Below are positions 1,482 through 28,985 of a stretch of 32,000 bases of DNA, piece after piece. Position 1 is the first letter of the stretch; each line of letters starts with the position of its first letter. Source of the DNA: Patescibacteria group bacterium (GTDB lineage Bacteria > Patescibacteriota > Patescibacteriia > UBA2591 > UBA6264). The DNA lies in contig JAQTOB010000004.1 of the NCBI GenBank assembly GCA_028713575.1, forward strand, positions 30,001 to 62,000, given 5' to 3'. A program made the position numbers and the translations under genes. The notes under the pieces were generated by a model that made no database searches, was not told the origin of the DNA, and saw only the letters and a list, made by a program, of their open reading frames with translations.

Positions 1482-2915
1482 ATGAATTTAAATCAATTAA
1501 CAATTTTATCGGTTCATCAGGGTTTAAAAAAGAAAGAATTTTCCAGTCAAGAATTGACTAAAGATTGCTTAACAAAAATAAAAAAAAGCAATAAAGAAAT
1601 TAATGCTTTTATTACTGTTTTAGAAAAACAAGCTTTAAAACAAGCCGAGGAAATTGATAAAAAAATTAAAATTCAAGGCGTGGATAATTTTTTAACTGGT
1701 ATTCCCCTGGGAATTAAAGACAATATTTTAATTCAAGATGTTGTTTGTACTGCTGGTTCAAAAATTTTAGAAAATTATCAGGCTATCTATGATGCCACGG
1801 TAATTAAAAAATTAAAAAAAGCTGGAGCGATTTTTTTAGGCAAAACCAATCTTGACGAATTCGCCATGGGTAGCTCTACTGAATCGTCTGCCTTTGGTCC
1901 GACCAAAAATCCTATTAATTTATCTTATATTCCCGGTGGTTCTTCTGGCGGTTCTGCCGCCGCAGTCGCGGCTAATATGTGTTTGGCTGCCCTTGGTTCT
2001 GATACTGGCGGTTCTGTCCGTCAACCGGCGGGATTTTGTGGCGTCGTTGGACTAAAACCAACCTATGGGCGGGTTTCTCGCTATGGCTTGATTGCCATGG
2101 CTTCTTCTCTTGATCAAATCGGACCATTGACCAAAAACATTGAAGACGCGGAAATTTTATTTAAAACAATTAAGGGCAAAGATGATTTTGATGCCACTAG
2201 CGTTGAGGTAAAAGATGAAGACCCAGGGAAAATGAAAACAAAAAAAATAAAAATTGGCCTACCTAAAGAATATTTTATCCAAGGGCTTGACTCGCAGATA
2301 AAGGAAGTCATCAATAACTTAATTAAAAAATGGCAGAAGCAAGACGCTGAATTTATAGAGGTTAGTTTGCCCCACGCATCGCTCGCTTTGGCTTGCTATT
2401 ATATTATTATGCCCGCGGAAGTTTCTTCTAATTTGGCTCGTTATGACGGCATTAAATACGGATTTTCCACCAATGGGGAAAATAAAAATTTATTAGATGT
2501 TTATTTAGATTCTCGAACCACGGGTTTTGGCGAAGAAGTCAAACGCCGAATTATGCTCGGCGCCTATACTTTGTCTGCCGGCTATTATCAGGATTATTAT
2601 TTACAGGCGCAGAAAGTAAGAACTTTAATCAAAAAAGATTTTGAAAAACTTTTTCAAGAAAAAGATATAGATTGTTTATTAACCCCAATTAGCCCAACTT
2701 TGCCCTGGAAATTGGGAGAAAAAATAAACAACCCTTTAAGTATGTATTTGGCGGATGTTTATACCGTTTCCGCCAATCTGGCTGGTTTGCCGGCGCTTTC
2801 ATTGCCTATTGGTAAAATTGATGATTGGCCGGTCAATGGGCAATTAATCGGTAATTATTTTCAGGAAAGCAAAATTCTGCATCTCGGAAAAATGATTGAA
2901 AAATTAGGACTTTAA
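1482..2915 (+). CDS. gatA: Glu-tRNA(Gln)/Asp-tRNA(Asn) amidotransferase subunit A
   Basis: 477 aa with the amidase signature GGSSGGSAAAVAANMCLAALGSDTGGSVRQPA and GatA-typical flanks (LGIKDNI, GKTNLDEFAMGSS). No gatB follows in this window. Confidence 0.95.
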   Translation: MNLNQLTILSVHQGLKKKEFSSQELTKDCLTKIKKSNKEINAFITVLEKQALKQAEEIDKKIKIQGVDNFLTGIPLGIKDNILIQDVVCTAGSKILENYQAIYDATVIKKLKKAGAIFLGKTNLDEFAMGSSTESSAFGPTKNPINLSYIPGGSSGGSAAAVAANMCLAALGSDTGGSVRQPAGFCGVVGLKPTYGRVSRYGLIAMASSLDQIGPLTKNIEDAEILFKTIKGKDDFDATSVEVKDEDPGKMKTKKIKIGLPKEYFIQGLDSQIKEVINNLIKKWQKQDAEFIEVSLPHASLALACYYIIMPAEVSSNLARYDGIKYGFSTNGENKNLLDVYLDSRTTGFGEEVKRRIMLGAYTLSAGYYQDYYLQAQKVRTLIKKDFEKLFQEKDIDCLLTPISPTLPWKLGEKINNPLSMYLADVYTVSANLAGLPALSLPIGKIDDWPVNGQLIGNYFQESKILHLGKMIEKLGL

Positions 2916-2967
2916 GGTTTTTGGAGACCAGGTCTCCAAAAACCTTTTGGAGACCAGGTCTCCAAAA
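2916..2967. repeat. Tandem pair of perfect palindromes starting directly after the gatA stop; possible bidirectional terminator
   Basis: GGTTTTTGGAGACC-a-GGTCTCCAAAAACC spans 2916-2944 (14-bp arms). TTTTGGAGACC-a-GGTCTCCAAAA spans 2945-2967 (11-bp arms). The core GGAGACCAGGTCTCC repeats with a 26-bp period. Confidence 0.9.
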
Positions 2968-2969
2968 AA

Positions 2970-3029
2970 GGTATTCAAAAAATGGCTGCTAAAATTCTGT
3001 ATCTCGGAAAAATGCTGGAAAAAATATAG
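2970..3029 (+). pseudogene. Displaced, diverged copy of the last ~20 codons of gatA
   Basis: 2991-3024 (aaaattctgtatctcggaaaaatgctggaaaaaa) matches gatA 2871-2904 (aaaattctgcatctcggaaaaatgattgaaaaat) at 30 of 34 positions. The offset is exactly 120 bp and in the same frame. It encodes GIQKMAAKILYLGKMLEKI* versus gatA GNYFQESKILHLGKMIEKLGL*. Confidence 0.6.
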
Positions 3030-3030
3030 A

Positions 3031-3062
3031 AAAACGTACGGAACAAAGCTTTGTCGTTTTTT
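3031..3062. terminator. Hairpin plus T-run after the fossil gatA end (candidate original gatA terminator)
   Basis: AAAAACG (3031-3037) pairs with CGTTTTT (3055-3061) around the inner palindrome ACAAAGCTTTGT. The hairpin is followed by tttta. T-rich sequence flanks it on both strands. Confidence 0.35.
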
Positions 3063-3266
3063 ATCTATGCGCAAGTCCACCCATAGCATTACACCTGTCT
3101 GTTTGAGTAGACGAGAGGTTAAAAGGATAGCGGTCGCCGCCTTGGTATCGGCTACTCTGCCTACGGCGGGGCCTCGCACGTTGTTGACGTTTATCTCGAC
3201 CACTCCAACGACAACGGGGGCTTTCGGCTCGCGGTCGTGTTTAAAATCAAGTCCTGACCTTTGATT
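3063..3266. ncRNA. Unassigned GC-rich island, candidate structured RNA (strand unresolved, slight lean to minus)
   Basis: About 200 nt that is much more GC-rich than any neighbouring intergenic DNA. Both overlapping ORFs translate to implausible proteins. Several local hairpins are present. A long-range helix, read on the minus strand, pairs gagtggtcgaga with tctcgtctactc (11 of 12 positions pair; one of those is a G-U pair that would be a C-A mismatch on the plus strand). I could not match it from memory to RNase P, tmRNA, SRP or 6S RNA. Confidence 0.35.
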
Positions 3267-3457
3267 CCTAATTTCTAATTGATTTGGAGGACTGAGGACT
3301 GAAAACTGAAGACTAATTTTAGGGAGCATTAATGATAGATGGAGATGGCAATACTTTTTATTTCATTTATCCACATCCTTTGAATGAGCGGGTATGTTGA
3401 CAAAAATTTTGAAGACTATAAACTAAATAATATTAATTTGTAATTTATTTTATTCTT

Positions 3458-4492: not shown

Positions 4493-4720
4493 TTTTGGGG
4501 GCTGGGGTCTGACCCCCTAAACAGACCCCCCAAAACCATTATTAGATTTGCAAAGTAGAACGATTTTTCTAATTTGGTGCGATTTTGTTGAATTTATTAT
4601 ATCATACCACTACAACTTCTTGCAGGTCAGACCTGCAAGAAGTCTCTGCAAGAAGTACTGCAAGAAGTAGGGCAAAAATTTTGATTTGGTGTAATTTTGA
4701 CGGATTTTCATTTTTTTAAT
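4493..4720. repeat. Composite repeat after the thioredoxin-fold gene: two different palindromes, each followed by the shared AT-rich module
   Basis: GGGGTC-t-GACCCC at 4504-4516 is nested in TTTTGGGGG (4493-4501) / CCCCCCAAAA (4526-4535). A module tagaacgatttttctaatttggtgcgattttgttgaattt follows. CTTCTTGCAGGTC-a-GACCTGCAAGAAG spans 4616-4642 (13-bp arms), with the right arm ctgcaagaagt repeated three times (4633, 4646, 4658). A second module ttgatttggtgtaattttgacggatttt follows. Confidence 0.85.
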
Positions 4721-6356: not shown

Positions 6357-6600
6357 CGGGGTTGTAAAAATAAGATTTTATAGTATAATGATAACATAAA
6401 ATATAAGAACATTAAAACGCCAGAACACTAGAATATAGTGACAGAAATACAATAACTAATTATTCTAATTATTCCAATGAATACCCAATTTCCAACCCCC
6501 AATGTCTAAAAATTTTTGGTCATTCAGTCATTGGTTATTGGGATTTTGTTAGGTCAATTAGAAATTAGGTTAATTAGGTTAATTTTATCTTATTTGTTCC

Positions 6601-6651
6601 AATGTTCCTATGTTATAATGTTCTAATGTTCTAATATTAAAATGATTTATT
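6601..6651 (+). repeat. Array of 8-bp units (AATGTTCT type) running into the pilM start codon
   Basis: The register is aatgttcc|tatgttat|aatgttct|aatgttct|aatattaa|aatgattt|att-ATG. An inverted partner array lies at about 6397-6430, on the comFC side of the same intergenic region. Confidence 0.7.
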
Positions 6652-8401: not shown

Positions 8402-8587
8402 GATATGGCAACATTGTAATTAGAAATATTAAGATTAAAACAAACAAGATTAATTTTTCCTTATAAATTACAAATTTCTTCGTTCCTCACTCAAGAGCTG
8501 CACTTAGGAGATTTGTTCCTAAGTATTTCTGATGGGGGATGCACCCCATCAGTTTGCCCCTAACGTCAATTTTAAGTTGTATATTCC

Positions 8588-8623
8588 AATGTTAAGATGT
8601 TAGAATGTTAAAATGATTTTTGT
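8588..8623 (+). repeat. Second 8-bp-unit array, running into the start of the pilO-like gene
   Basis: The register is aatgttaa|gatgttag|aatgttaa|aatgattt|ttgt-ATG. It ends with the same AATGATTT unit as the pilM array. Confidence 0.7.
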
Positions 8624-12480: not shown

Positions 12481-13195
12481 ATAATTAGATAATTGGGGTC
12501 GGAGATAATTGGGGTCTGACCCCATGAGCATCCCTTCTGAGATAATTGGGGTCTGACCCCATGAGTATCCCTTCTAAAACATACATGATAATTGGGGTCT
12601 GATAATTGGGGTCTGACCCCATGAGCATCCCTTCTAAAACATACATCAATAAAGGATTATAGAACGAAAATTTCAATTTGGCGCGATTTTGATTGATTTC
12701 CAATAATTTTTTATCAAAACAACGATTTTTGACACTAATTTTGGGGTCTACACTAATTTTGGGGTCTGACCCCATGAGCATCCCCTCTAAAACATACATC
12801 AATAAAGGATTATAGAACGAAAATTTCAATTTGGTGTGATTTTGATTGATTTCCAATCACTAATTTTGGGGTCTGACCCCATGAGCATCCCTTCTAAAAC
12901 ATACATCAATAAAGGATTATAGAACGAAAATTTCAATTTGGTGTGATTTTGATTGATTTCCAATAATTTTTTATTAAAACAACGATTTTAATTGAAAATT
13001 GATAATTATTTAATTTACATTTAATCACTAATTTTGGGGTCTGACCCCATGAGTATCCCTTCTAAAACATACATCAATAAAGGATTATAGAACGAAAATT
13101 TCAATTTGGTGCGATTTTGATTGATTTCCAATAATTTTTTAACAAAACAACGATTTTAATTGAAAATTGATAATTATTTAATTTACATTTTGCAT
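12481..13195. repeat. Array of composite repeat units (GGGGTCTGACCCC hairpin, body, shared AT-rich module, tail) filling the pilT-pilC gap
   Basis: Long units start at 12601, 12751, 12858 and 13026 (107 to about 170 bp, near-identical). Head-only or truncated copies start at 12488, 12504, 12541, 12587 and 12733. Confidence 0.95.
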
Positions 13196-14596: not shown

Positions 14597-14653
14597 GTAT
14601 TAAAATATTTTAAAAATAGGTCGACACTTTAATAATTTTTTAACTTAAACATT

Positions 14654-15376
14654 ATGAAAAACAAAATTTTAGTCGTCGGAGTTTTTGTCTTTATTTTTAT
14701 TCTCGCCACCAATATGTATGCCATTGCTCAAAATGGCGATACCGGAATGGGTAATCAAATGCAACAGCGAATTCAGATTGACAATCAGAGCGAGAATGAC
14801 CAAATCCAGACGCAAAACAGAGAACAAGTTCAATTAGAAATGAATGTTGAAATGGGCAATCAGGTGCAACAGCAAAATCAAGTGCAAAATCAAGGCGAAA
14901 CAAGTCAACTTCAAAACAGCGAACAACAACAAACACAAACTCAAAAGAATTTATCTTTAAACGAACAGAGAAGAAGTCAAGTTGCCAATGCTGTGCAGGA
15001 AATGTTGCAGGTAGCGGAAAAAGATAGTGAAATGGGTCAGCAAATAAGAATAATTGCTCAAAATCAAAATCAAAATCAGGAAAAAATTGAAGACAGTTTG
15101 CAAAAAGTCCAAAGCCGAAGCGGCTTTGTTAAATTATTTATCGGACAAAATTACGCAGAAATCAACAATATTAAAAAAATGTTGATGCAGAATAAAGAAC
15201 AGATTGAACAGTTAAACCAGATTAAAAATCAACTTGTTAATCAAGATGACCAGCAACAGTTAAATGAACAAGTTCAAGTTTTAGAGCAGACTAATTTGCA
15301 AGTTGGGAGTTCTTTGGAGGCGGCTCAAAAAGGATTCAGTTTATTCGGCTGGATGTTTAGAATGTTTGCCAAATAA
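14654..15376 (+). CDS. Secreted Gln/Asn-rich coiled-coil protein
   Basis: 240 aa with a signal-peptide-like N-terminus (MKNKILVVGVFVFIFILATNMYAIA). The body is dominated by Q, N and E. The C-terminus is hydrophobic (GFSLFGWMFRMFAK). Confidence 0.6.
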   Translation: MKNKILVVGVFVFIFILATNMYAIAQNGDTGMGNQMQQRIQIDNQSENDQIQTQNREQVQLEMNVEMGNQVQQQNQVQNQGETSQLQNSEQQQTQTQKNLSLNEQRRSQVANAVQEMLQVAEKDSEMGQQIRIIAQNQNQNQEKIEDSLQKVQSRSGFVKLFIGQNYAEINNIKKMLMQNKEQIEQLNQIKNQLVNQDDQQQLNEQVQVLEQTNLQVGSSLEAAQKGFSLFGWMFRMFAK

Positions 15377-15500
15377 TTTTTCGGCAGCGCATAACTCCGT
15401 ATAAAAGTGGCTTAAATTTGGCTAAATAATCATATTAATTTTTAAAGACTCGGTCTTCAAGGGGTCCTTTCGCTTGAATTGTAATTTTAATAAAATTTTT

Positions 15501-19409: not shown

Positions 19410-19450
19410 TTAATTGTTTTTTAGCCAAAGGCTGATCCGTCTCCGACGGA

Positions 19451-19515
19451 AATGTTCTAATGTTCTAGTGTTTTAATGTTTTAATGTTTTTATGTTTTTA
19501 TGTTTTTATGTTTTT
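19451..19515 (+). repeat. Third 8-bp-unit array (8 units), ending at the ATG of the next ORF
   Basis: The register is aatgttct|aatgttct|agtgtttt|aatgtttt|aatgtttt|tatgtttt|tatgtttt|tatgtttt|t-ATG. Confidence 0.8.
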
Positions 19516-19860
19516 ATGAATCCTAATAAATGGGAAAATTTAATATTTATGGCTGAGGAAAAATTTGGTTTAGACAAGAAATACATGGAAGATTTTGAGG
19601 TTTCCGAACTTTCTACGGGCGAGAAAATTATGGGCCAAAAAGAAATTGTGGAATTTAAGAGTCCTTTGGGTCGGATAAAGTTAGAAAAAACTTCCCGGCC
19701 AAAAGTCATTGATAAAAAAGTTTTACACACCAAGAGAATTGGCGGCAGAACCGCCATTGATTTCGTTTATTCGCCGGACGAAAGAGTTGAAGAGCTTAAA
19801 ATTTATAAAGAAAATAAAGAAGGGGAATGGGAAGAGTTAACGGCATTGAAGGAATTTTAA
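19516..19860 (+). CDS. Hypothetical protein
   Basis: The ORF track starts at 19492, inside the 8-mer array. The in-frame ATG at 19516 (MNPNKWENLIF...) is the first one outside the array. No family was recognised. Confidence 0.45.
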   Translation: MNPNKWENLIFMAEEKFGLDKKYMEDFEVSELSTGEKIMGQKEIVEFKSPLGRIKLEKTSRPKVIDKKVLHTKRIGGRTAIDFVYSPDERVEELKIYKENKEGEWEELTALKEF

Positions 19861-22500: not shown

Positions 22501-25500
22501 ATGAAAATCAAAAACAAAATTTTTAGGAGGGTGAAACAAAAAATCACAAAAATTATTTTTGTTTTTTTAATGGTCGCGACGATGACGGGGAGTTTAACTA
22601 ACATTGCTCAAGCTTATTTATTAGACGCGGTTGATTTGTTAGGACAAATGGACACTTTAGACGAACCGATTTATACGCGAAGCACGCAAAACAATCCTTA
22701 TAGTACCATAGTCAGCAATGCGGTTTTCAACGGCGCGGAAGATGTGAAAATTGATACAGTTCATCACCGTTTATTCGTCGCCGACCGCAGTAACAATAGG
22801 GTTTTAGTTTATGATTTGGACGAAAATAATCAATTTGAACATTATGCCGCTGATTATGTTTTGGGTCAGCCGGATTTTACCACGGTCAGCGCCGGCACCA
22901 CGCAGAGCAAATTCAACGCTTCAAGATATATCGCCTATGATTCCAATCATCAGCGTTTGTTTGTTTCCGAAGAAGAAAATAAACGGGTAACGGTCTTTGA
23001 TTTATCCGAAGGAGTTACCACTGGTATGGACGCTTCTTATGTTCTTGGTCAGCCGGATTTCACCACCAGCGACACTACCACCACTTTATTTGGTTTTGAT
23101 TATTGTTGGGGACTGGCTTATGACTTAGATAATGATTATTTGTATGTGGCTGACGGATCTTCCCATAATCGTATTTTAATTTTTGATGTTGCCCCCGAAG
23201 AAATGTATAACTATAAACCGGCCTTTGCTCATTTGGGCTCTTTGATCGGCACTGCTTTGGACGATTCTCATTTTGAGGGTCCCCATGGCTTGGTTTTGGA
23301 CAAGACCAATGATATTTTATATGCGACCGACACCGACCATCATAGAATAATGATTTTTGATACAGAAGAAATTATCAATGGAGAAAGCGCGATTAATGTC
23401 CTTGGTCAATTAAATTTTACTTCAGATAGCACCAGCACTAGCAGCGTGGGTATGAATTACCCTTATAATGTTGATTTTGATGGAGTTGATGAGCGTTTAT
23501 TTGTTGCTGACGCTACCAATCATCGCGTAATGGTTTTTGACGTTTCTGGGGGAGTGACAGATGGCATGGAAGCCTCTTATGTTTTGGGTCAGATTGATTT
23601 TGACGCCAACAGTTCTGGCGCGACCCAATCTAAATTTAATAAGCCTCGCGGCGTGGCCTATAATTCCGTTACCAAAGAATTATATGTCGGCGATTCAGGC
23701 AATAATCGGATAATGGTTTTTGATTTATCCCAAGGTATTACTAACGGCATGAACGCTTCCAAACTTTTAGGACATACCACGCGCGGCGGCGTGCCGAATT
23801 GGACTTTTACCACTGCCAATCAAATGGGAGCACCTATTGACGACATCGGTTTGCACACGCCCGATAAAGTCCATTTTGATTCTGTCGGGCACCGTTTGTT
23901 CCAATCAGACCAGAACAATAGCCGTATCTTGGTTTATAATTTGGATGAAAATAATAATTTAATTGACCATGTTGCGGATTATGTGATTGGCAGAGATGAT
24001 TTTTTTACCGGCGGCTCGGACAATACCGGTGGCGGTCAAGCCGCTTTTAAATGGCAACATAATTCAATTCTTGATTCCGGGCGTCAGCGTTTATTCGTTT
24101 CTGATTCTTATAATAACCGGATTATGGTTTTTGACATTTCCGAAGGCATCGCCAACGGCATGAATGCGGCTTATGTTCTTGGTCAACCGGATTTTACTTC
24201 TTATGATGCGATTACTACCATTAGTGGCGTTAACGGGCCTCGCGGTTTTGCTTTTGATTCAAGCACTGACCGTTTATTTGTTGCCGACCGCAATAATCAT
24301 CGGGTTTTGGTTTATGATGTGGCGGAAATTGAAACCGGCGAAGACGCAATCAATGTTTTGGGCCAGTCCGACTTCACTAGCAACTCCGCAACCACTAGTA
24401 TCAGTGGCATGGACTATCCTTATGATTTAGCTTTGGACCAAACCAATCAACGTTTATTTGTTATTGACAAGAACAACAACCGAGTGGTTGTTTATGATGT
24501 GGCGGAAATTACTAACGGCGAAGACGCGGTGGCGGTTCTGGGTCAAGCTGATTTTAATTCTAAAATTGATACCGTTGAAGATGTTGAACAAAGGATTCAA
24601 ACCCAAGATAGATTATTTAACACCAGGGGAGTGGCTTATGATTCGGTTAATAATTGGTTATTTGTCGTGGAATACGCCGGTCATCGGGTAATGGTATTTG
24701 ATGTCACGGAAATTGAAAACGGCGAGCCGGCAATCAATGTTTTAGGAGACGAAACTTTTAATACGACTCTTTTGGAAACAATTGATGCCAATGAAAATAC
24801 GAATCGGGTCGCGACTGCCAGCAATTTTTGGACGCCCGAGACAGCGGAAATAGACGGAACCAATAGAAAATTATATGTTAGCGACCAAAATCATAACCGG
24901 ACCATGATTTTCCAATTGCCCAAAATTACGACTGCTTCATTAAGTAATGGCACTGTAGGCGAAGTTTATAGTCAAACAATTTCCGGTACTGGCGGCGCTG
25001 AGCCCTATGTTTGTTCTTTGGTCTCAGGCACTTTGCCCACTGGTTTATCCTTAAACGCTAATTGCACTATTACCGGCGCGCCATCAGCGGCCGGAACAGC
25101 CAATAATCTTGTTATTCGTTTTTCTGACAGTTCAATTACTTCGCCGGAAACAGTCGGCTTATGGCACAACAAAACTTTTAGTTTAACTGTTGACGAGTCT
25201 TTGGCTAACATTAAAATTTCAGCCAAAGCCGAATTAACCGCGGCCTTGGCGACTTATAATCAGGAGGATTACACCGAAGAAAACTGGACAGGTCTAAATA
25301 CTTATAAAACCGATGGCGACACAGCTATTGATGATGCCGAAGATACAGCCGGAGTTACAACAGCTAAAAATACGGCTATCAATGGAATGGCCGGAGTGGA
25401 AACCATTGCTCAAACACTTAAAACAATTACTGCTTTTTCTGTTCCTAATCAAGTTGGCGCGTCAACGATTAATCAAACCGACAAGACAATCAAATTAGTG

Positions 25501-27243
25501 GTTCCGTTTGGCACAGATGTTACTGACCTTGTGGCGTCTTTTACTACTACTGGCGCCTTGGTTAAAGTTAGCGGAGCAACACAAACCAGCGGTCAAACCG
25601 CTAATGATTTCACAAATTCTTTAATTTATACTGTTTCCGCCGTCAATGAGACAACACAGAATTATACGGTTAGTGTCACGGTCTTGACTAATACGCAAAC
25701 CGCCATAGATGATGAGGGCGCTGTTACCATTGATAACAGCACGCCTCAGGCGGTTATTATTAATCCAACTCAGGCAGTCACTGTTGATATTGCCGAAGAC
25801 ACGGAAGGCCCGAGCATTGATGTTAGTTCATTTATTAGTGCCGGAACAGGAACCATTCCTCAAATTACTATTACAGCCGCGAACGCGAATAATGTTAATG
25901 TAGCCATTCCCGCCTCCACCACTGTGACCAGTGCTGATTCGGCTTGGGATGGAGTAATTGCCGCGCCAGTCGTGACCACGGTCACTTTGCCCAATACTTC
26001 AGGAGAAATGAAAACATTAAGCACAGCCATTGAAGTCGGATTCTCCGGTGCCAAATTATCTTTTGATAAGGCGGTTAGGCTATTATTGCCGAACCAAGCG
26101 GGGAAAAGAGTAGGTTACATTAGAACAGGAATTGATTTTACGGAAATAACTTCGGTTTGTGACGCAGACAGCCAAGCGGTTGGCGACCTCTTGTCCGCTG
26201 ACGGTGAATGTAAAAAAGATGTGGGCAATGATTTAGTTGTCTGGACAAAACATTTTACTTCCTTTGCCACTTTTAGCGCGGTTCCTTTGTCTAGTGGCGG
26301 AGGAGGCGGCAGCGCTCCTGTTTTAGTGGGCCCCTCTGATTTAAGTTTAAAAATAAATAATGATGCATTGGAAACTTTTTCAAGAAATGTTGTTTTAAAT
26401 ATTAATGCCGCTAATGCCACGGAAATGTTAGTCGGCGATACTGTTGATTTTGCCAATGTTGATTGGGAAGAGTATGCGAGTTTGAAAAATTGGACCTTAA
26501 CTTCTGGCAATGGAGAAAAAATAATTTATATTAAATTTAGAGACAGCAGTCACAATGAATCTTCTGTAGTTTCCGACACGATTATATTAGAAGAAGAAAT
26601 AGTTGCGGTTGGCGAGGGAAGCTTGGTTAAAACTGCTGATTCTACTGCTTTGTATTTGATTCTTAATGCCAAGCGTCATGTTTTTCCGCACTTGGCCGTT
26701 TATCATTCCTGGTCTTATCCAAATGATTTTTCCACTGTTAAAACAATTACTACTGTTGAATTAAATCAATATCCGGAAGGCGATGCCGTTCCTTTCCGCG
26801 ACGGCTCAATGTTCAGGGGCACGACCCAATCCTTGTATGGTAAATCCGCTTCTGCTGTTTTTTATGTAGAAGACGGGAAATTAAGAGCAGTTAAATCAGG
26901 AGAAATTTATCAGACACTTTTTAATGACCCGAATTGGTCATTAGTCACTTGGGTTCCGGACGACTTGTTGGCCAAGTTTAATTATGAATTGTCTAATGAT
27001 TTAGATTCGTCAGATATCCATCCCAATGGTTCTTTGGTTAAATACCCTGATGCTCCTGCGGTTTACCTGATTAAAAATGGCAAAAAGCAACCCTTTTCTT
27101 CTTGGGACATTTTCGTCGCTAACGGTTATAGTCAAAGGAAGATTTTTGTCATTTCGGCTGAAGAGACCTATGAAACAGCAGAAATAATCAGCAGTTTAGC
27201 CGAATCCCTGACTACGCCAGTCATTGCTGCGATGTATCAATAG
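22501..27243 (+). CDS. Giant secreted surface protein: 12 NHL-type beta-propeller blades, Ig-like and other beta-sandwich domains, and a C-terminal ~190-aa domain shared with the S-layer-like protein
   Basis: 1580 aa with a signal peptide (..VATMTGSLTNIAQA). There are 12 repeats of the pattern hRLFVxDxxNNRvhVaDh followed by YVLGQPDFTS. A cadherin/Ig-like segment (GTVGEVYSQTISGTGGAEPYVCSLVSGTLPTGLSL) follows, then further beta-sandwich-like segments and a Gly linker (SSGGGGGS). Confidence 0.85.
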   Translation: MKIKNKIFRRVKQKITKIIFVFLMVATMTGSLTNIAQAYLLDAVDLLGQMDTLDEPIYTRSTQNNPYSTIVSNAVFNGAEDVKIDTVHHRLFVADRSNNRVLVYDLDENNQFEHYAADYVLGQPDFTTVSAGTTQSKFNASRYIAYDSNHQRLFVSEEENKRVTVFDLSEGVTTGMDASYVLGQPDFTTSDTTTTLFGFDYCWGLAYDLDNDYLYVADGSSHNRILIFDVAPEEMYNYKPAFAHLGSLIGTALDDSHFEGPHGLVLDKTNDILYATDTDHHRIMIFDTEEIINGESAINVLGQLNFTSDSTSTSSVGMNYPYNVDFDGVDERLFVADATNHRVMVFDVSGGVTDGMEASYVLGQIDFDANSSGATQSKFNKPRGVAYNSVTKELYVGDSGNNRIMVFDLSQGITNGMNASKLLGHTTRGGVPNWTFTTANQMGAPIDDIGLHTPDKVHFDSVGHRLFQSDQNNSRILVYNLDENNNLIDHVADYVIGRDDFFTGGSDNTGGGQAAFKWQHNSILDSGRQRLFVSDSYNNRIMVFDISEGIANGMNAAYVLGQPDFTSYDAITTISGVNGPRGFAFDSSTDRLFVADRNNHRVLVYDVAEIETGEDAINVLGQSDFTSNSATTSISGMDYPYDLALDQTNQRLFVIDKNNNRVVVYDVAEITNGEDAVAVLGQADFNSKIDTVEDVEQRIQTQDRLFNTRGVAYDSVNNWLFVVEYAGHRVMVFDVTEIENGEPAINVLGDETFNTTLLETIDANENTNRVATASNFWTPETAEIDGTNRKLYVSDQNHNRTMIFQLPKITTASLSNGTVGEVYSQTISGTGGAEPYVCSLVSGTLPTGLSLNANCTITGAPSAAGTANNLVIRFSDSSITSPETVGLWHNKTFSLTVDESLANIKISAKAELTAALATYNQEDYTEENWTGLNTYKTDGDTAIDDAEDTAGVTTAKNTAINGMAGVETIAQTLKTITAFSVPNQVGASTINQTDKTIKLVVPFGTDVTDLVASFTTTGALVKVSGATQTSGQTANDFTNSLIYTVSAVNETTQNYTVSVTVLTNTQTAIDDEGAVTIDNSTPQAVIINPTQAVTVDIAEDTEGPSIDVSSFISAGTGTIPQITITAANANNVNVAIPASTTVTSADSAWDGVIAAPVVTTVTLPNTSGEMKTLSTAIEVGFSGAKLSFDKAVRLLLPNQAGKRVGYIRTGIDFTEITSVCDADSQAVGDLLSADGECKKDVGNDLVVWTKHFTSFATFSAVPLSSGGGGGSAPVLVGPSDLSLKINNDALETFSRNVVLNINAANATEMLVGDTVDFANVDWEEYASLKNWTLTSGNGEKIIYIKFRDSSHNESSVVSDTIILEEEIVAVGEGSLVKTADSTALYLILNAKRHVFPHLAVYHSWSYPNDFSTVKTITTVELNQYPEGDAVPFRDGSMFRGTTQSLYGKSASAVFYVEDGKLRAVKSGEIYQTLFNDPNWSLVTWVPDDLLAKFNYELSNDLDSSDIHPNGSLVKYPDAPAVYLIKNGKKQPFSSWDIFVANGYSQRKIFVISAEETYETAEIISSLAESLTTPVIAAMYQ

Positions 27244-27264: not shown

Positions 27265-27840
27265 AAATAAAGAAAAGTCCTCCTATTTTTGAGGGGGTCT
27301 TTTCTTTGTTTTGAGACTCGGTTTCCCGTTGGAAACCGAGTCTCTTCACTTCTTGGTTGTTTTGAGACTCGGTTTCCCGTTGGAAACCGAGTCTCTTCAC
27401 TTCTTGGCTTCCTGTTTAAAGTTCGGTTTCCCGCTTTGCTTCGTAGCGAGCTTTGCTCTGCTACTGGGGCTGGAAGCCGAACTTCTTTATTTTATAAAAA
27501 GCCACTTGGTCTTTAAAGTCCTCCTATTTTTGAGGGGGTCTTTTCTTTGTTTTGAGACTCGGTTTCCCGTTGGAAACCGAGTCTCTTCACTTCTTGGCTT
27601 TGATACTTTGGCGCAATCCCTGATTATGCCGGCTATGGCCGATTTAGCGCAATAAAGCTTCTATTATATATACACTTTGTTTTGAGACTCGGTTTCCCGT
27701 TGGAAACCGAGTCTCTTCACTTCTTGGCTTCCTGTTTAAAGTTCGGTTTCCCGCTTTGCTTCGTAGCGAGCTTTGCTCTGCTACTGGGGCTGGAAGCCGA
27801 ACTTCTTTATTTTATAAAAAGCCACTTGGTCTTTAAAGCC
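27265..27840. repeat. Composite repeat block after the giant gene
   Basis: The ~50-bp unit gttttgagactcggtttcccgttggaaaccgagtctcttcacttcttgg occurs four times (27308, 27358, 27548, 27678). The ~110-bp unit cttcctgtttaaagttcggtttccc...gccacttggtctttaaag occurs twice (27407, 27728). The unit tcctcctatttttgagggggtcttttctttg occurs twice (27278, 27518). Confidence 0.95.
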
Positions 27841-27938
27841 TTTTTTATAGGGAGGTTTGACCCCTTCCTCTTGTTATAAATATTATAAATGTTATAATAA
27901 TTTTCTACTATTTTCGTAAAATTTTCGTATTTCGTAGC

Positions 27939-28469
27939 ATGTTCCACCTCAGAGAGAAAATCCTTTTTCATCAAATTAAAAACGGTGACGAACAGGCCTT
28001 CACCGTCTTTTATAATACCTATAAAGACAGAATTTATCGTTTTATTTATTTTAAAGTTTCTGATCGTGAAAAAGTTTATGATTTGGTTTCCGAAGTTTTT
28101 ATTAAAATATATGATTATATTAAAGAGGGGAATGACATTGATAATTTTCAAGCTTTTTTGTATAAAATCGCTCGTAATTTAGTAATAGATTTTTATCGCA
28201 CTAAAAAAGAGGAAATTTCTTTAACTGATGCGCCGGAAACAGTTTCTCCTATCAATTTAGAAAAAGAAGTGGGAGATAAGGTTGCCGTGGAAAACGTCAA
28301 AAGATACCTTAATAAAATTAAACCAGAATACCGCGAAGCGGTTCATCTTCATTTTTTTGAAAATTTTTCTTTTTCCGAGATTGCGGATATTATCAATCAA
28401 TCCGAAGGCAATGTTAGGATTAGGGTTTATCGCGGCATTAAGCAATTAAAAGAGGTTTTAAGGGGTTGA
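27939..28469 (+). CDS. ECF-type RNA polymerase sigma factor (sigma-70 family)
   Basis: 176 aa with region 2 (YKDRIYRFIYFKVSDREKVYDLVSEVFIKIY, FQAFLYKIARNLVIDFYR) and region 4 (EYREAVHLHFFENFSFSEIADIINQSEGNVRIRVYRGIKQLKE). Confidence 0.9.
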   Translation: MFHLREKILFHQIKNGDEQAFTVFYNTYKDRIYRFIYFKVSDREKVYDLVSEVFIKIYDYIKEGNDIDNFQAFLYKIARNLVIDFYRTKKEEISLTDAPETVSPINLEKEVGDKVAVENVKRYLNKIKPEYREAVHLHFFENFSFSEIADIINQSEGNVRIRVYRGIKQLKEVLRG

Positions 28470-28985
28470 ACCCCTTCTATATGTAGGGGTTCAACCCCCT
28501 CCCCAATAATCGCCATCATAAACTTTTTACACAGGAACTTTTTACACATTTTTACACAGGACATTTTTACACAGGTTGAACCTGTGTAAATTTTCATTTG
28601 CATATTTCACAAAACAAATCCAAAATCCAAAACCCAAATTTTCATAATCACTTGGGAACCGAGTTTCTAAAAAGCAAGAAAGCAAGAGATGGATTCTACG
28701 CTAGAAACTCGGTTTCCCGTTGGAAACCGAGTTTCCTTCTCCCCAATAATCGCCATCATAAACTTTTTACACAGGAACTTTTTACACATTTTTATACAGC
28801 ACATTTTTACACAGCACATTTTTATACATTTTTACACAGGTTGAACCTGTGTAAATTTTCATTTGCATATTTCACAAAACAAATCCAAAATCCAAAACCC
28901 AAATTTTCATAATCACTTGGGAACCGAGTTCCTAAAAAGACATTTTTACACAGGTTGAACCTGTGTAAATTTTCATTTGGCATTT
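28462..28985. repeat. Composite repeat block between the sigma and anti-sigma genes
   Basis: GGGGTT-g-AACCCC at 28462-28474 overlaps the sigma stop codon, and GGGGTT-c-AACCCC lies at 28486-28498. A ~170-200-bp unit (ctccccaataatcgccatcataaac ... cacttgggaaccgag) occurs twice (28498, 28738), plus a partial third copy at 28940. The palindrome TTTACACAGGTT-g-AACCTGTGTAAA occurs three times. Confidence 0.95.

Follow-up and report, generated by a model that had tools for sequence, protein, structure and literature searches.

A second copy of the gatA gene end beside paired palindromes in a Patescibacteria genome, most likely the relic of a small local rearrangement

Why should the end of a gene be present twice, once in the gene and once downstream of its stop codon? 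This question is raised by gatA in a 32,000-nucleotide (nt) stretch of DNA, referred to here as the window, from a Patescibacteria group bacterium (contig JAQTOB010000004.1, positions 30,001 to 62,000). The last codons of gatA recur, in diverged form, on the far side of two perfect palindromes, and this second copy of 36 nt is most likely the dead remnant of a small local DNA rearrangement. An initial annotation of the sequence had proposed that a cassette of about 120 bp entered the end of an ancestral gatA, bringing a replacement C-terminus, a stop codon, and the palindromes, and displacing the original terminus and terminator. The segment is low in G+C and of Patescibacteria type, and its gene order (ligA, gatC, gatA, a gene for a protein of 340 amino acids [aa], and lgt) is also kept in relatives.

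The direct repeat at the end of gatA

The duplicated portion of gatA comprises 36 nt, i.e., 12 codons. The upstream copy (A, 2871–2906) and the downstream copy (A′, 2991–3026) agree at 32 of 36 positions and start exactly 120 nt apart, a spacing that the initial annotation had given correctly together with its count of 30 matches in 34 positions for 2871–2904 versus 2991–3024, which is exact on recount. The same annotation let the duplication cover the last 22 codons (66 nt). This extent does not hold, since the additional stretch (2850–2870 versus 2970–2990) matches at only 8 of 21 positions, which is chance level. At the other end, the last codons and stop of gatA (2907–2915) match 3027–3035 at one of nine positions, that is, they are absent from the downstream copy. 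The two perfect palindromes reported between the copies are identical to each other (24/24, 26 nt apart), and the frame stays open, as claimed, from 2916 to the TAG at 3027–3029 (translation GFWRPGLQKPFGDQVSKKGIQKMAAKILYLGKMLEKI, then stop).

The similarity is significant. As a control, the comparison of the gatA tail with the 542-nt downstream region was repeated on 1000 dinucleotide shuffles. The ungapped score of the real pair is 24, while the shuffles give a mean of 8.6 (sd 1.1) and a maximum of 15, i.e., none of the 1000 reaches two thirds of the observed score. Across the whole window, the repeat is recovered by blastn-short with E=5.5e-7, and in a scan of 25 window genes for fossil gene ends gatA scores z=15. 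The repeat is partly of low complexity and rich in A (AAAAATG, GAAAAA), which is what a chance match in A-rich sequence would build on; the probability of this explanation is nevertheless negligible, and the shuffle tests, the E value, and the z score refute it.

The arrangement is also fixed in the population. Copy A, the palindromes, A′, and a weak hairpin after it are present in all five full-length intergenic sequences of the same species (the window, L031, L058, L059, and L060), and it is not an assembly artifact, because four of the five are contigs from other samples. These sequences are 99.5% identical overall and A′ is identical in all of them; three shorter contigs of the species break off within the palindromes. 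The only strain differences between A and the weak hairpin are tandem duplications of 14 and 17 nt, which take in the left flank and left arm of the hairpin, and the gatA hairpin region is in this respect a live duplication hotspot. The exact 24-mer common to both copies has no match in the JGI metagenomes, and none of the loci of 16 relatives carries a duplicated gatA end.

Which of the two copies has kept the ancestral state can be read from relatives. A and A′ differ at four sites, and there the outgroups (L040, L037, L034, and L001), all of them or nearly all, have the base found in A. The changes, three nonsynonymous and one synonymous, are all derived in A′, and A′ is hence the decaying relic. 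Moreover, both copies share codons that are specific to the lineage, e.g., CTC for Leu where all relatives have Ile, which places the duplication within the window lineage. These observations fit the polarity put forward initially, in which the downstream end is the displaced one: A′ is derived at four of four sites and has kept its context of a TAG followed by hairpin and T-run.

The same data bear on the idea that the two ends stem from diverged gatA alleles. Recombination with DNA from a related strain, illegitimate or facilitated by homology, would have joined them and displaced the end of one allele downstream. In its favor, the protein differences between A and A′ are conservative (H/Y, I/L, L/I), and a second fossil in the window (see below), which some strains lack, is like a foreign allele in being 63% identical to its gene. 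However, it is always A′ that is derived at the four differing sites, both copies carry the lineage-specific codons seen in no relative, and a ratio of 3:1 nonsynonymous to synonymous changes looks neutral rather than selected. We consider this origin very doubtful.

Still less probable, and in our view highly so, is that the downstream copy is functional, be it as a mini-open reading frame (mini-ORF) of 15 codons (ATG at 2982, MAAKILYLGKMLEKI, then stop), as a read-through extension of GatA, or as an RNA element. The frame from 2916 to 3026 is open and in phase with gatA, and the copy is invariant in the five full sequences of the species. Yet strains that are 99.5% identical overall make this invariance say little, the stop-free palindrome accounts for most of the open frame, and the substitutions look neutral. 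An Rfam scan of the window at gathering thresholds returned two tRNAs only, and a permissive scan just hairpin-type microRNA noise on the palindromes, so no Rfam family speaks for an RNA element. On the opposite strand, public records hold a "hypothetical protein" of 141–144 aa (e.g., MDD4996388.1) spanning 2904–3329. This ORF runs antisense across the palindromes, the relic, and a variable repeat discussed below, and it is probably a spurious call.

The features of the interval are collected in Table 1. The arms of palindrome 1 are 16 nt long and 100% complementary (2914–2929 and 2931–2946), and its predicted RNA fold (-21.4 kcal/mol, z=-4.6) suggests that it is probably the present-day terminator of gatA. 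The run that follows it on the plus strand is just TTTT, and a terminator scan flags solely the minus-strand reading of palindrome 2; the pair together folds at -35.4 kcal/mol (z=-6.6). Next to the pair, the stretch at 2969–2983 is, from its sequence, more plausibly a degenerate further right arm of the palindrome than part of the gatA-end duplication. Partial duplications of an arm plus flank are also found at three metagenome loci (L047, L048, and L050), the equivalent stretch in a strain contig (L032) is GTCTTCAAAAAATGG, and 7 nt separate the degenerate arm from A′. The hairpin and T-run noted earlier at 3031–3062 exist, but the structure is weak (-9.5 kcal/mol, z=-2.15; 7 of 200 shuffles fold equally well) and was not called by the terminator scan. 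Upstream of this interval, a patch richer in G+C (45–46%) lies between gatC and gatA (1296–1360); it contains a hairpin, GGCTGCCGTCCTTTTTTGAAAGGACGGGGTCCGGCC, and has no Rfam match.

Table 1. Features of the interval from gatA to the promoter of the next gene (window coordinates)
Feature	Position	Strand	Remarks
gatA coding sequence	1482..2915	+	477 aa, amidase family; from the ORF list; PF01425; homologues named GatA (100% to 59% identical)
Upstream copy A	2871..2906	+	codons for KILHLGKMIEKL; working C-terminal segment of GatA
New tail GGA CTT TAA (Gly-Leu-stop)	2907..2915	+	TAA overlaps the foot of the first hairpin; stem starts at 2914
Palindrome 1	2914..2946		AAGGTTTTTGGAGACC A GGTCTCCAAAAACCTT, then TTTT
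Palindrome 2	2943..2970		23-nt core TTTTGGAGACCAGGTCTCCAAAA at 2945-2967, exact second copy
Degenerate extra right palindrome arm	2969..2983	+	GGTATTCAAAAAAT versus GGTCTCCAAAAAA; as read from the sequence
Downstream copy A′ with in-frame TAG, relic gatA end	2991..3029	+	KILYLGKMLEKI; repeat match to A
Weak hairpin and T-run straight after the relic stop	3031..3062	+	read as decayed former terminator
Truncated end of a C-type-lectin/FGE-like gene	3120..3255	+	ends NDNGGFRLAVVFKIKS, then stop; 57% GC; part of the extra, lineage-specific DNA from gatA to the next promoter
Promoter-like site of the next gene	3397..3424	+	TTGACA-16-TAAACT; ATGTTGACAAAAA motif common to relatives

Origin of the downstream copy

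The reading that we favor, if tentatively, is a single event in which a palindrome block was inserted at the gatA end and 36 nt of the target were duplicated. One rearrangement in the window lineage would have placed an 84-nt block (2907–2990) at the end of the gene. The block would consist of the two-codon tail and the TAA, then a palindrome resembling repetitive extragenic palindromic (REP) elements in two complete copies and a partial one, and 7 nt. The upstream copy would still encode the last helix of GatA, with the Gly-Leu-stop end supplied by the block, and palindrome 1 with its TTTT would have taken over as terminator. The downstream copy would have been left behind as a silent relic, which has since acquired four substitutions and would retain the TAG of the ancestral gene and its terminator, now weak. 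That insertion and duplication occurred together is something we infer. As to the process, the hairpin may have provoked replication slippage or template switching, or its DNA may have been the substrate of a Y1/HUH transposase.

The case draws on the repeat itself and the polarity of its changes, on the strain duplications at the hairpin, on the partial arm copies at other sites, on the gain and loss of the dispersed palindrome, and on a second gene of the window with a fossil end next to a palindrome block. It draws on the junctions as well. Ordinary gatA sequence leads into A, and the junction in front of A′ is clearly new. Behind A′, an in-frame TAG follows immediately and then a hairpin with a T-run, and this junction looks like a true former gene end. 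Had A′ been pasted into a spacer, a double coincidence (the TAG, and the hairpin with its T-run) would be needed, and it is for this reason that a single block insertion is preferred.

The same junction argues against a related possibility, namely that a short piece of the gatA end was copied to a place 3′ of an already existing palindromic terminator, e.g., as a templated repair patch at a hairpin break, so that only 2991–3026 is new. The relatives lend this some plausibility. In same-order relatives (71–73% identity), 102–152 nt lie between gatA and the next gene, and in two of them (L037 and L040) the spacer is a hairpin right after the gatA stop followed by the conserved promoter motif ATGTTGACAAAAA, which in L040 stands directly 3′ of the hairpin. 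In the window lineage, about 440 nt, the relic included, are found in addition between the gatA hairpin and the promoter. The upstream copy is, moreover, the one that agrees with the relatives. For a pasted copy, however, the in-frame stop and the hairpin with T-run behind it would be due to chance; the relic is, moreover, in frame with gatA. We regard such a patch as very unlikely.

In another scheme, the duplication came first and independently, either as an in-frame slippage of the last 12 codons (36 nt) or as a larger tandem duplication that has decayed, and the palindromes arrived or expanded between the copies later, owing to their preference for gene ends and hairpins. The palindromes are perfect and variable in copy number, whereas A′ is 11% diverged and invariant, which suggests different ages; many gene ends carry palindromes without any duplication; and both 36 and 84 are multiples of three. 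Against this order of events, the palindrome block would have had to hit the precise point where the two copies adjoined, the poor match of 2907–2915 to 3027–3035 (one of nine) leaves no second copy of the sequence that follows A, and more steps are needed than for a single event. This origin appears unlikely to us.

Several observations weigh against the single insertion as well. The apparent difference in age just mentioned applies to it also: with perfect palindromes beside an A′ that is 11% diverged, either the palindromes are younger than the duplication or some process has kept them uniform. The hairpin of L040 (AAGTTTGGAAGCGAGGCTTCCAAACTTTT followed by TTTT, -18.2 kcal/mol) is like palindrome 1 in form and position, and its arms (TTTGGAAGC..GCTTCCAAA) raise the possibility that the palindrome may be an older resident terminator that predates the duplication. 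We know of no transposition mechanism that gives a 36-nt target duplication. The polarity argument is based on four sites only. No flanking direct repeat was seen at 21 other clusters of the palindrome (24 of 25 other sites), except for a tandem array in L055, in a test that is blind to target-site duplications shorter than about 10 nt. Finally, an empty site was seen in none of the strains or relatives, and all five full sequences of the species carry both copies. The decisive empty site was not found because the searched collections hold no GatA between 76% and 100% identity, the nearest other GatA being 76% identical.

Of the cassette envisaged initially, some elements survive. A block bracketed by two gatA ends is indeed what the locus contains, but with 36 nt duplicated, not 66, and with no empty site to set beside it. 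The block does provide the last two codons and the TAA, while the rest of the C-terminus is the duplicated 36 nt. The analogy to integrative elements that restore the gene into which they insert fares less well: a block of 84 nt that encodes nothing shows no integrase-like logic, and restoring a gene end is not a property of the element, given that flanking repeats are lacking at the 21 other clusters apart from the one tandem array.

The palindrome family and neighboring repeats

The palindrome at gatA belongs to a dispersed family. In the form TTTGGAGACC(A/T)GGTCTCCAAA (in single-stranded form, TTTGGAGACCAGGTCTCCAAA) it is found at 27 sites, spread over 16 other metagenome loci with 34–42% GC, often as tandem pairs with partial arm copies and with up to 6 copies in 3.6 kb. 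In about 40 kb available from the window species, the gatA site is the sole occurrence, and a scan of viral contigs gave no match to the palindrome. The perfect palindromes measure 21–33 nt and fold at -15 to -21 kcal/mol. The flanks of the core tend to be complementary yet differ from site to site, the mean extension being 2.15 bp compared with 0.70 +/- 0.19 in permutations. All six frames of the core are free of stop codons; to take this as a special design is a weak argument, as a short palindrome has only three independent frames.

When the ORF context of all sites is considered, most lie 3′ of ORFs and a minority is intragenic. About nine copies stand in frame within real genes, where they add peptides such as LETRSPK, FWRPGLQK, and FGDQVSK. 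The hosts confirmed by Pfam encode a UvrA-like ABC ATPase, PriA, a MiaB-like radical-SAM enzyme, three glycosyltransferases, and Dus, and a UvrB that bears the palindrome is intact (E=3e-235 to a solved UvrB). The closest UvrB orthologues (82% identity and below) do not have the palindrome peptide, which makes the palindrome a lineage-specific gain there. Judged from its distribution across these sequences, the palindrome is dispersed, gained, and lost. Two other identities were considered for the repeats and set aside. Contamination by vector or adapter sequence, suggested by two BsaI sites in the core, does not fit with copies in frame in conserved genes and with an origin in several independent projects; guide arrays of the TIGR type, considered for the palindromic arrays, find no Tas protein or box C/D evidence. 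One sample, Ga0172377, holds the window species (L063, with an identical sigma factor) as well as palindrome contigs (L047, L048, L050, and L055), and these contigs may come from the same genome as the window species.

The initial annotation suggested searching for other genes with a fossil end downstream of the palindromes, and among the 25 window genes there is one more besides gatA, although the palindrome unit there is a different one. A large NHL-repeat gene of 1580 aa (22501–27243) ends in LAESLTTPVIAAMYQ and a stop. About 360 nt downstream, its last 16 codons and stop recur (z=6.3) at 27598–27655, which reads LAQSLIMPAMADLAQ and then stop; as counted from the sequence, 31 of 49 nt are identical to 27195–27243, with the stop at the same position. 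This fossil, which is older than the gatA relic, lies directly 3′ of a palindrome unit, GAGACTCGGTTTCCCGTTGGAAACCGAGTCTC. Two strain loci (L062 and L063) lack both the fossil and the neighboring units, and a third (L061) has an intermediate arrangement. Since the fossil module differs among strains, palindrome units appear here to bound modules that are gained or lost.

The surroundings of this second fossil are rich in repeats. Complex arrays extend over 27270–28980 on both sides of a gene for an ECF-type sigma factor (27939–28469) and contain five GAGACTCGGTTTCCCGTTGGAAACCGAGTCTC palindromes, 100% identical units of 83 and 162 nt, and runs of TTTTTACACAG; an ORF-like open frame of 114 codons crosses the array.

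A possible agent for the palindromes is a transposase of the Y1/HUH type. Genes with a Y1_Tnp domain that carry the palindrome or are flanked by palindromes were found in three loci: in L053 and L055 the palindrome is inside and around the gene, and in L058, which is from the window species, a 219-aa IS200-like Y1/HUH gene (14651–15451) stands directly 5′ of ligA, just upstream of the first base of the window. Perfect palindromes of other sequence, TTGGAAGGTGCTCACCTTCCAA and TTTTCTTTTTGGCAGGTGATCACCTGCCAAAAAGAAAA, stand on either side of the latter, and its position upstream of ligA is kept in a relative with 73% identical GatA (L057). The only NCBIfam match of the Y1 proteins is the model for REP-associated tyrosine transposases (RAYT), with 33.7 and 23.9 bits at a cut-off of 80, and the match to ISDra2 TnpA in the PDB is marginal. 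The locus in L058 resembles a REPtron, though its protein falls far below the RAYT cut-off. The link between transposase and palindromes is circumstantial.

Nevertheless, two fossil gene ends next to palindromes within 32 kb invite a broader conjecture, which we hold to be quite unlikely: that the palindromes are a mobile, REP-like family of Patescibacteria whose movement or processing depends on the conserved single-copy Y1/HUH gene beside ligA, and that landing at a gene end copies tens of target bases, so that a working end and a fossil are left. If true, this would be a so far undescribed mode of insertion with a long target duplication. Were the Y1 link to hold, systems of the REP/RAYT type would reach into Patescibacteria, in an untagged form with perfect palindromes. 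The gatA relic by itself is a small scar. Taken with the second fossil and the strain differences, it points to hairpin repeats as a main source of small rearrangements in these reduced genomes, one that can rewrite gene ends, provide stop codons and terminators, and sit in frame in essential repair genes.

Within the lineage-specific DNA behind the relic, the truncated C-type-lectin/FGE-like fragment (Table 1) is of separate interest. Among three strain haplotypes, 18 positions differ in the hypervariable segment 3136–3216, while the surrounding 540 nt or so differ at two, and 17 of the 18 lie at codon positions 1 and 2 of the frame that ends HSNDNGGFRLAVVFKIKS and stop. From its sequence, this pattern looks like the signature of the variable repeat of a diversity-generating retroelement (DGR). 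The frame of the fragment is cut by conserved stops; the repeat looks as if it were still, or had until recently been, diversified despite them. A second copy that could serve as template repeat was not found in the window or in the 20-kb L058 locus (52 kb together), and the short fragment has no Pfam match. An RVT_1 reverse-transcriptase gene is present about 8 kb from gatA (L058 19815–20435, 412 aa, cut by the end of the locus); by our own reading, the part seen is without the SQ motif typical of DGRs, and searches with it returned homologues at most 48% identical over the full query and one 76% match covering a third.

Other repeats are scattered over the window. At 12499–13160, a tandem array is built of 107–168-nt units, in which the palindrome TGGGGTCTGACCCCA is accompanied by a 40-nt conserved motif (TAGAACGAAAATTTCAATTTGG..), and one extra copy of both palindrome and motif is found near 4503–4707 (including 4503–4536). 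Between the 340-aa gene and lgt lies a 29-nt perfect palindrome, ACTTCTTGCAGGTC-T-GACCTGCAAGAAGT (4615–4643; also L058 8690–8718). Runs of an 8-nt unit (AATGTTCT / AATGTTTT) precede genes in three intergenic regions (6593–6648, 8580–8619, and 19443–19522).

Comparison with known systems

Among systems that bracket an insert with direct repeats, the integrative elements of gene 3′ ends come closest in outline: the gene end works, the displaced end stays downstream, and, as with att duplication, the direct repeats here include the gatA end and leave the gene intact. Unlike in such elements, the repeats enclose only 84 nt, without an ORF or an integrase, and the 36-nt repeat is not, as an att core would be, common to other copies of the palindrome. 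An autonomous element that recombines site-specifically cannot account for the locus, unless it has meanwhile lost nearly all of its sequence by deletion.

Duplications by slippage or template switching at hairpins offer another parallel. The 14- and 17-nt tandem duplications of the strains each have one end within the hairpin, and stalled replication forks are expected to give rise to duplications of this kind. If the gatA duplication were simply tandem, the order would be A-block-A-block; in the present locus, unrelated sequence follows the second copy.

The palindromes themselves are best compared with REP and REPIN sequences, with which they share the short hairpin-forming palindrome, the frequent pairing, and the position mostly just 3′ of genes. 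To our knowledge, REPs do not duplicate 36 nt of target. Like REPs, they have intragenic copies in replication and repair genes, here uvrB, the gene for the UvrA-like ABC ATPase, and priA. For REPs, such locations have been described, as have elements that supply stop codons (PMC3733652). REPs also carry a tag, a conserved GTAG or CGTC tetranucleotide at one end (PMC3733652), which is absent from the core and flanks of the 27 metagenome and 2 window sites. Their arms are imperfect, unlike the perfect arms found here, and the Y1 gene of the window species, unlike the arrangement in REP/RAYT systems, is flanked by palindromes of another kind. The copies in frame call to mind the Rickettsia palindromic elements, which likewise sit in frame inside genes for working proteins (PMC3733652); these are 100–150 nt long and specific to Rickettsia, whereas the present core has 21–33 nt and occurs in Patescibacteria-type contigs. 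On the whole, the behavior of the palindromes is that of REP elements and, for the copies in frame, that of Rickettsia palindromic elements, though the tag is missing, and we classify them as a REP-like repeat family with a long duplication that is specific to the gatA locus.

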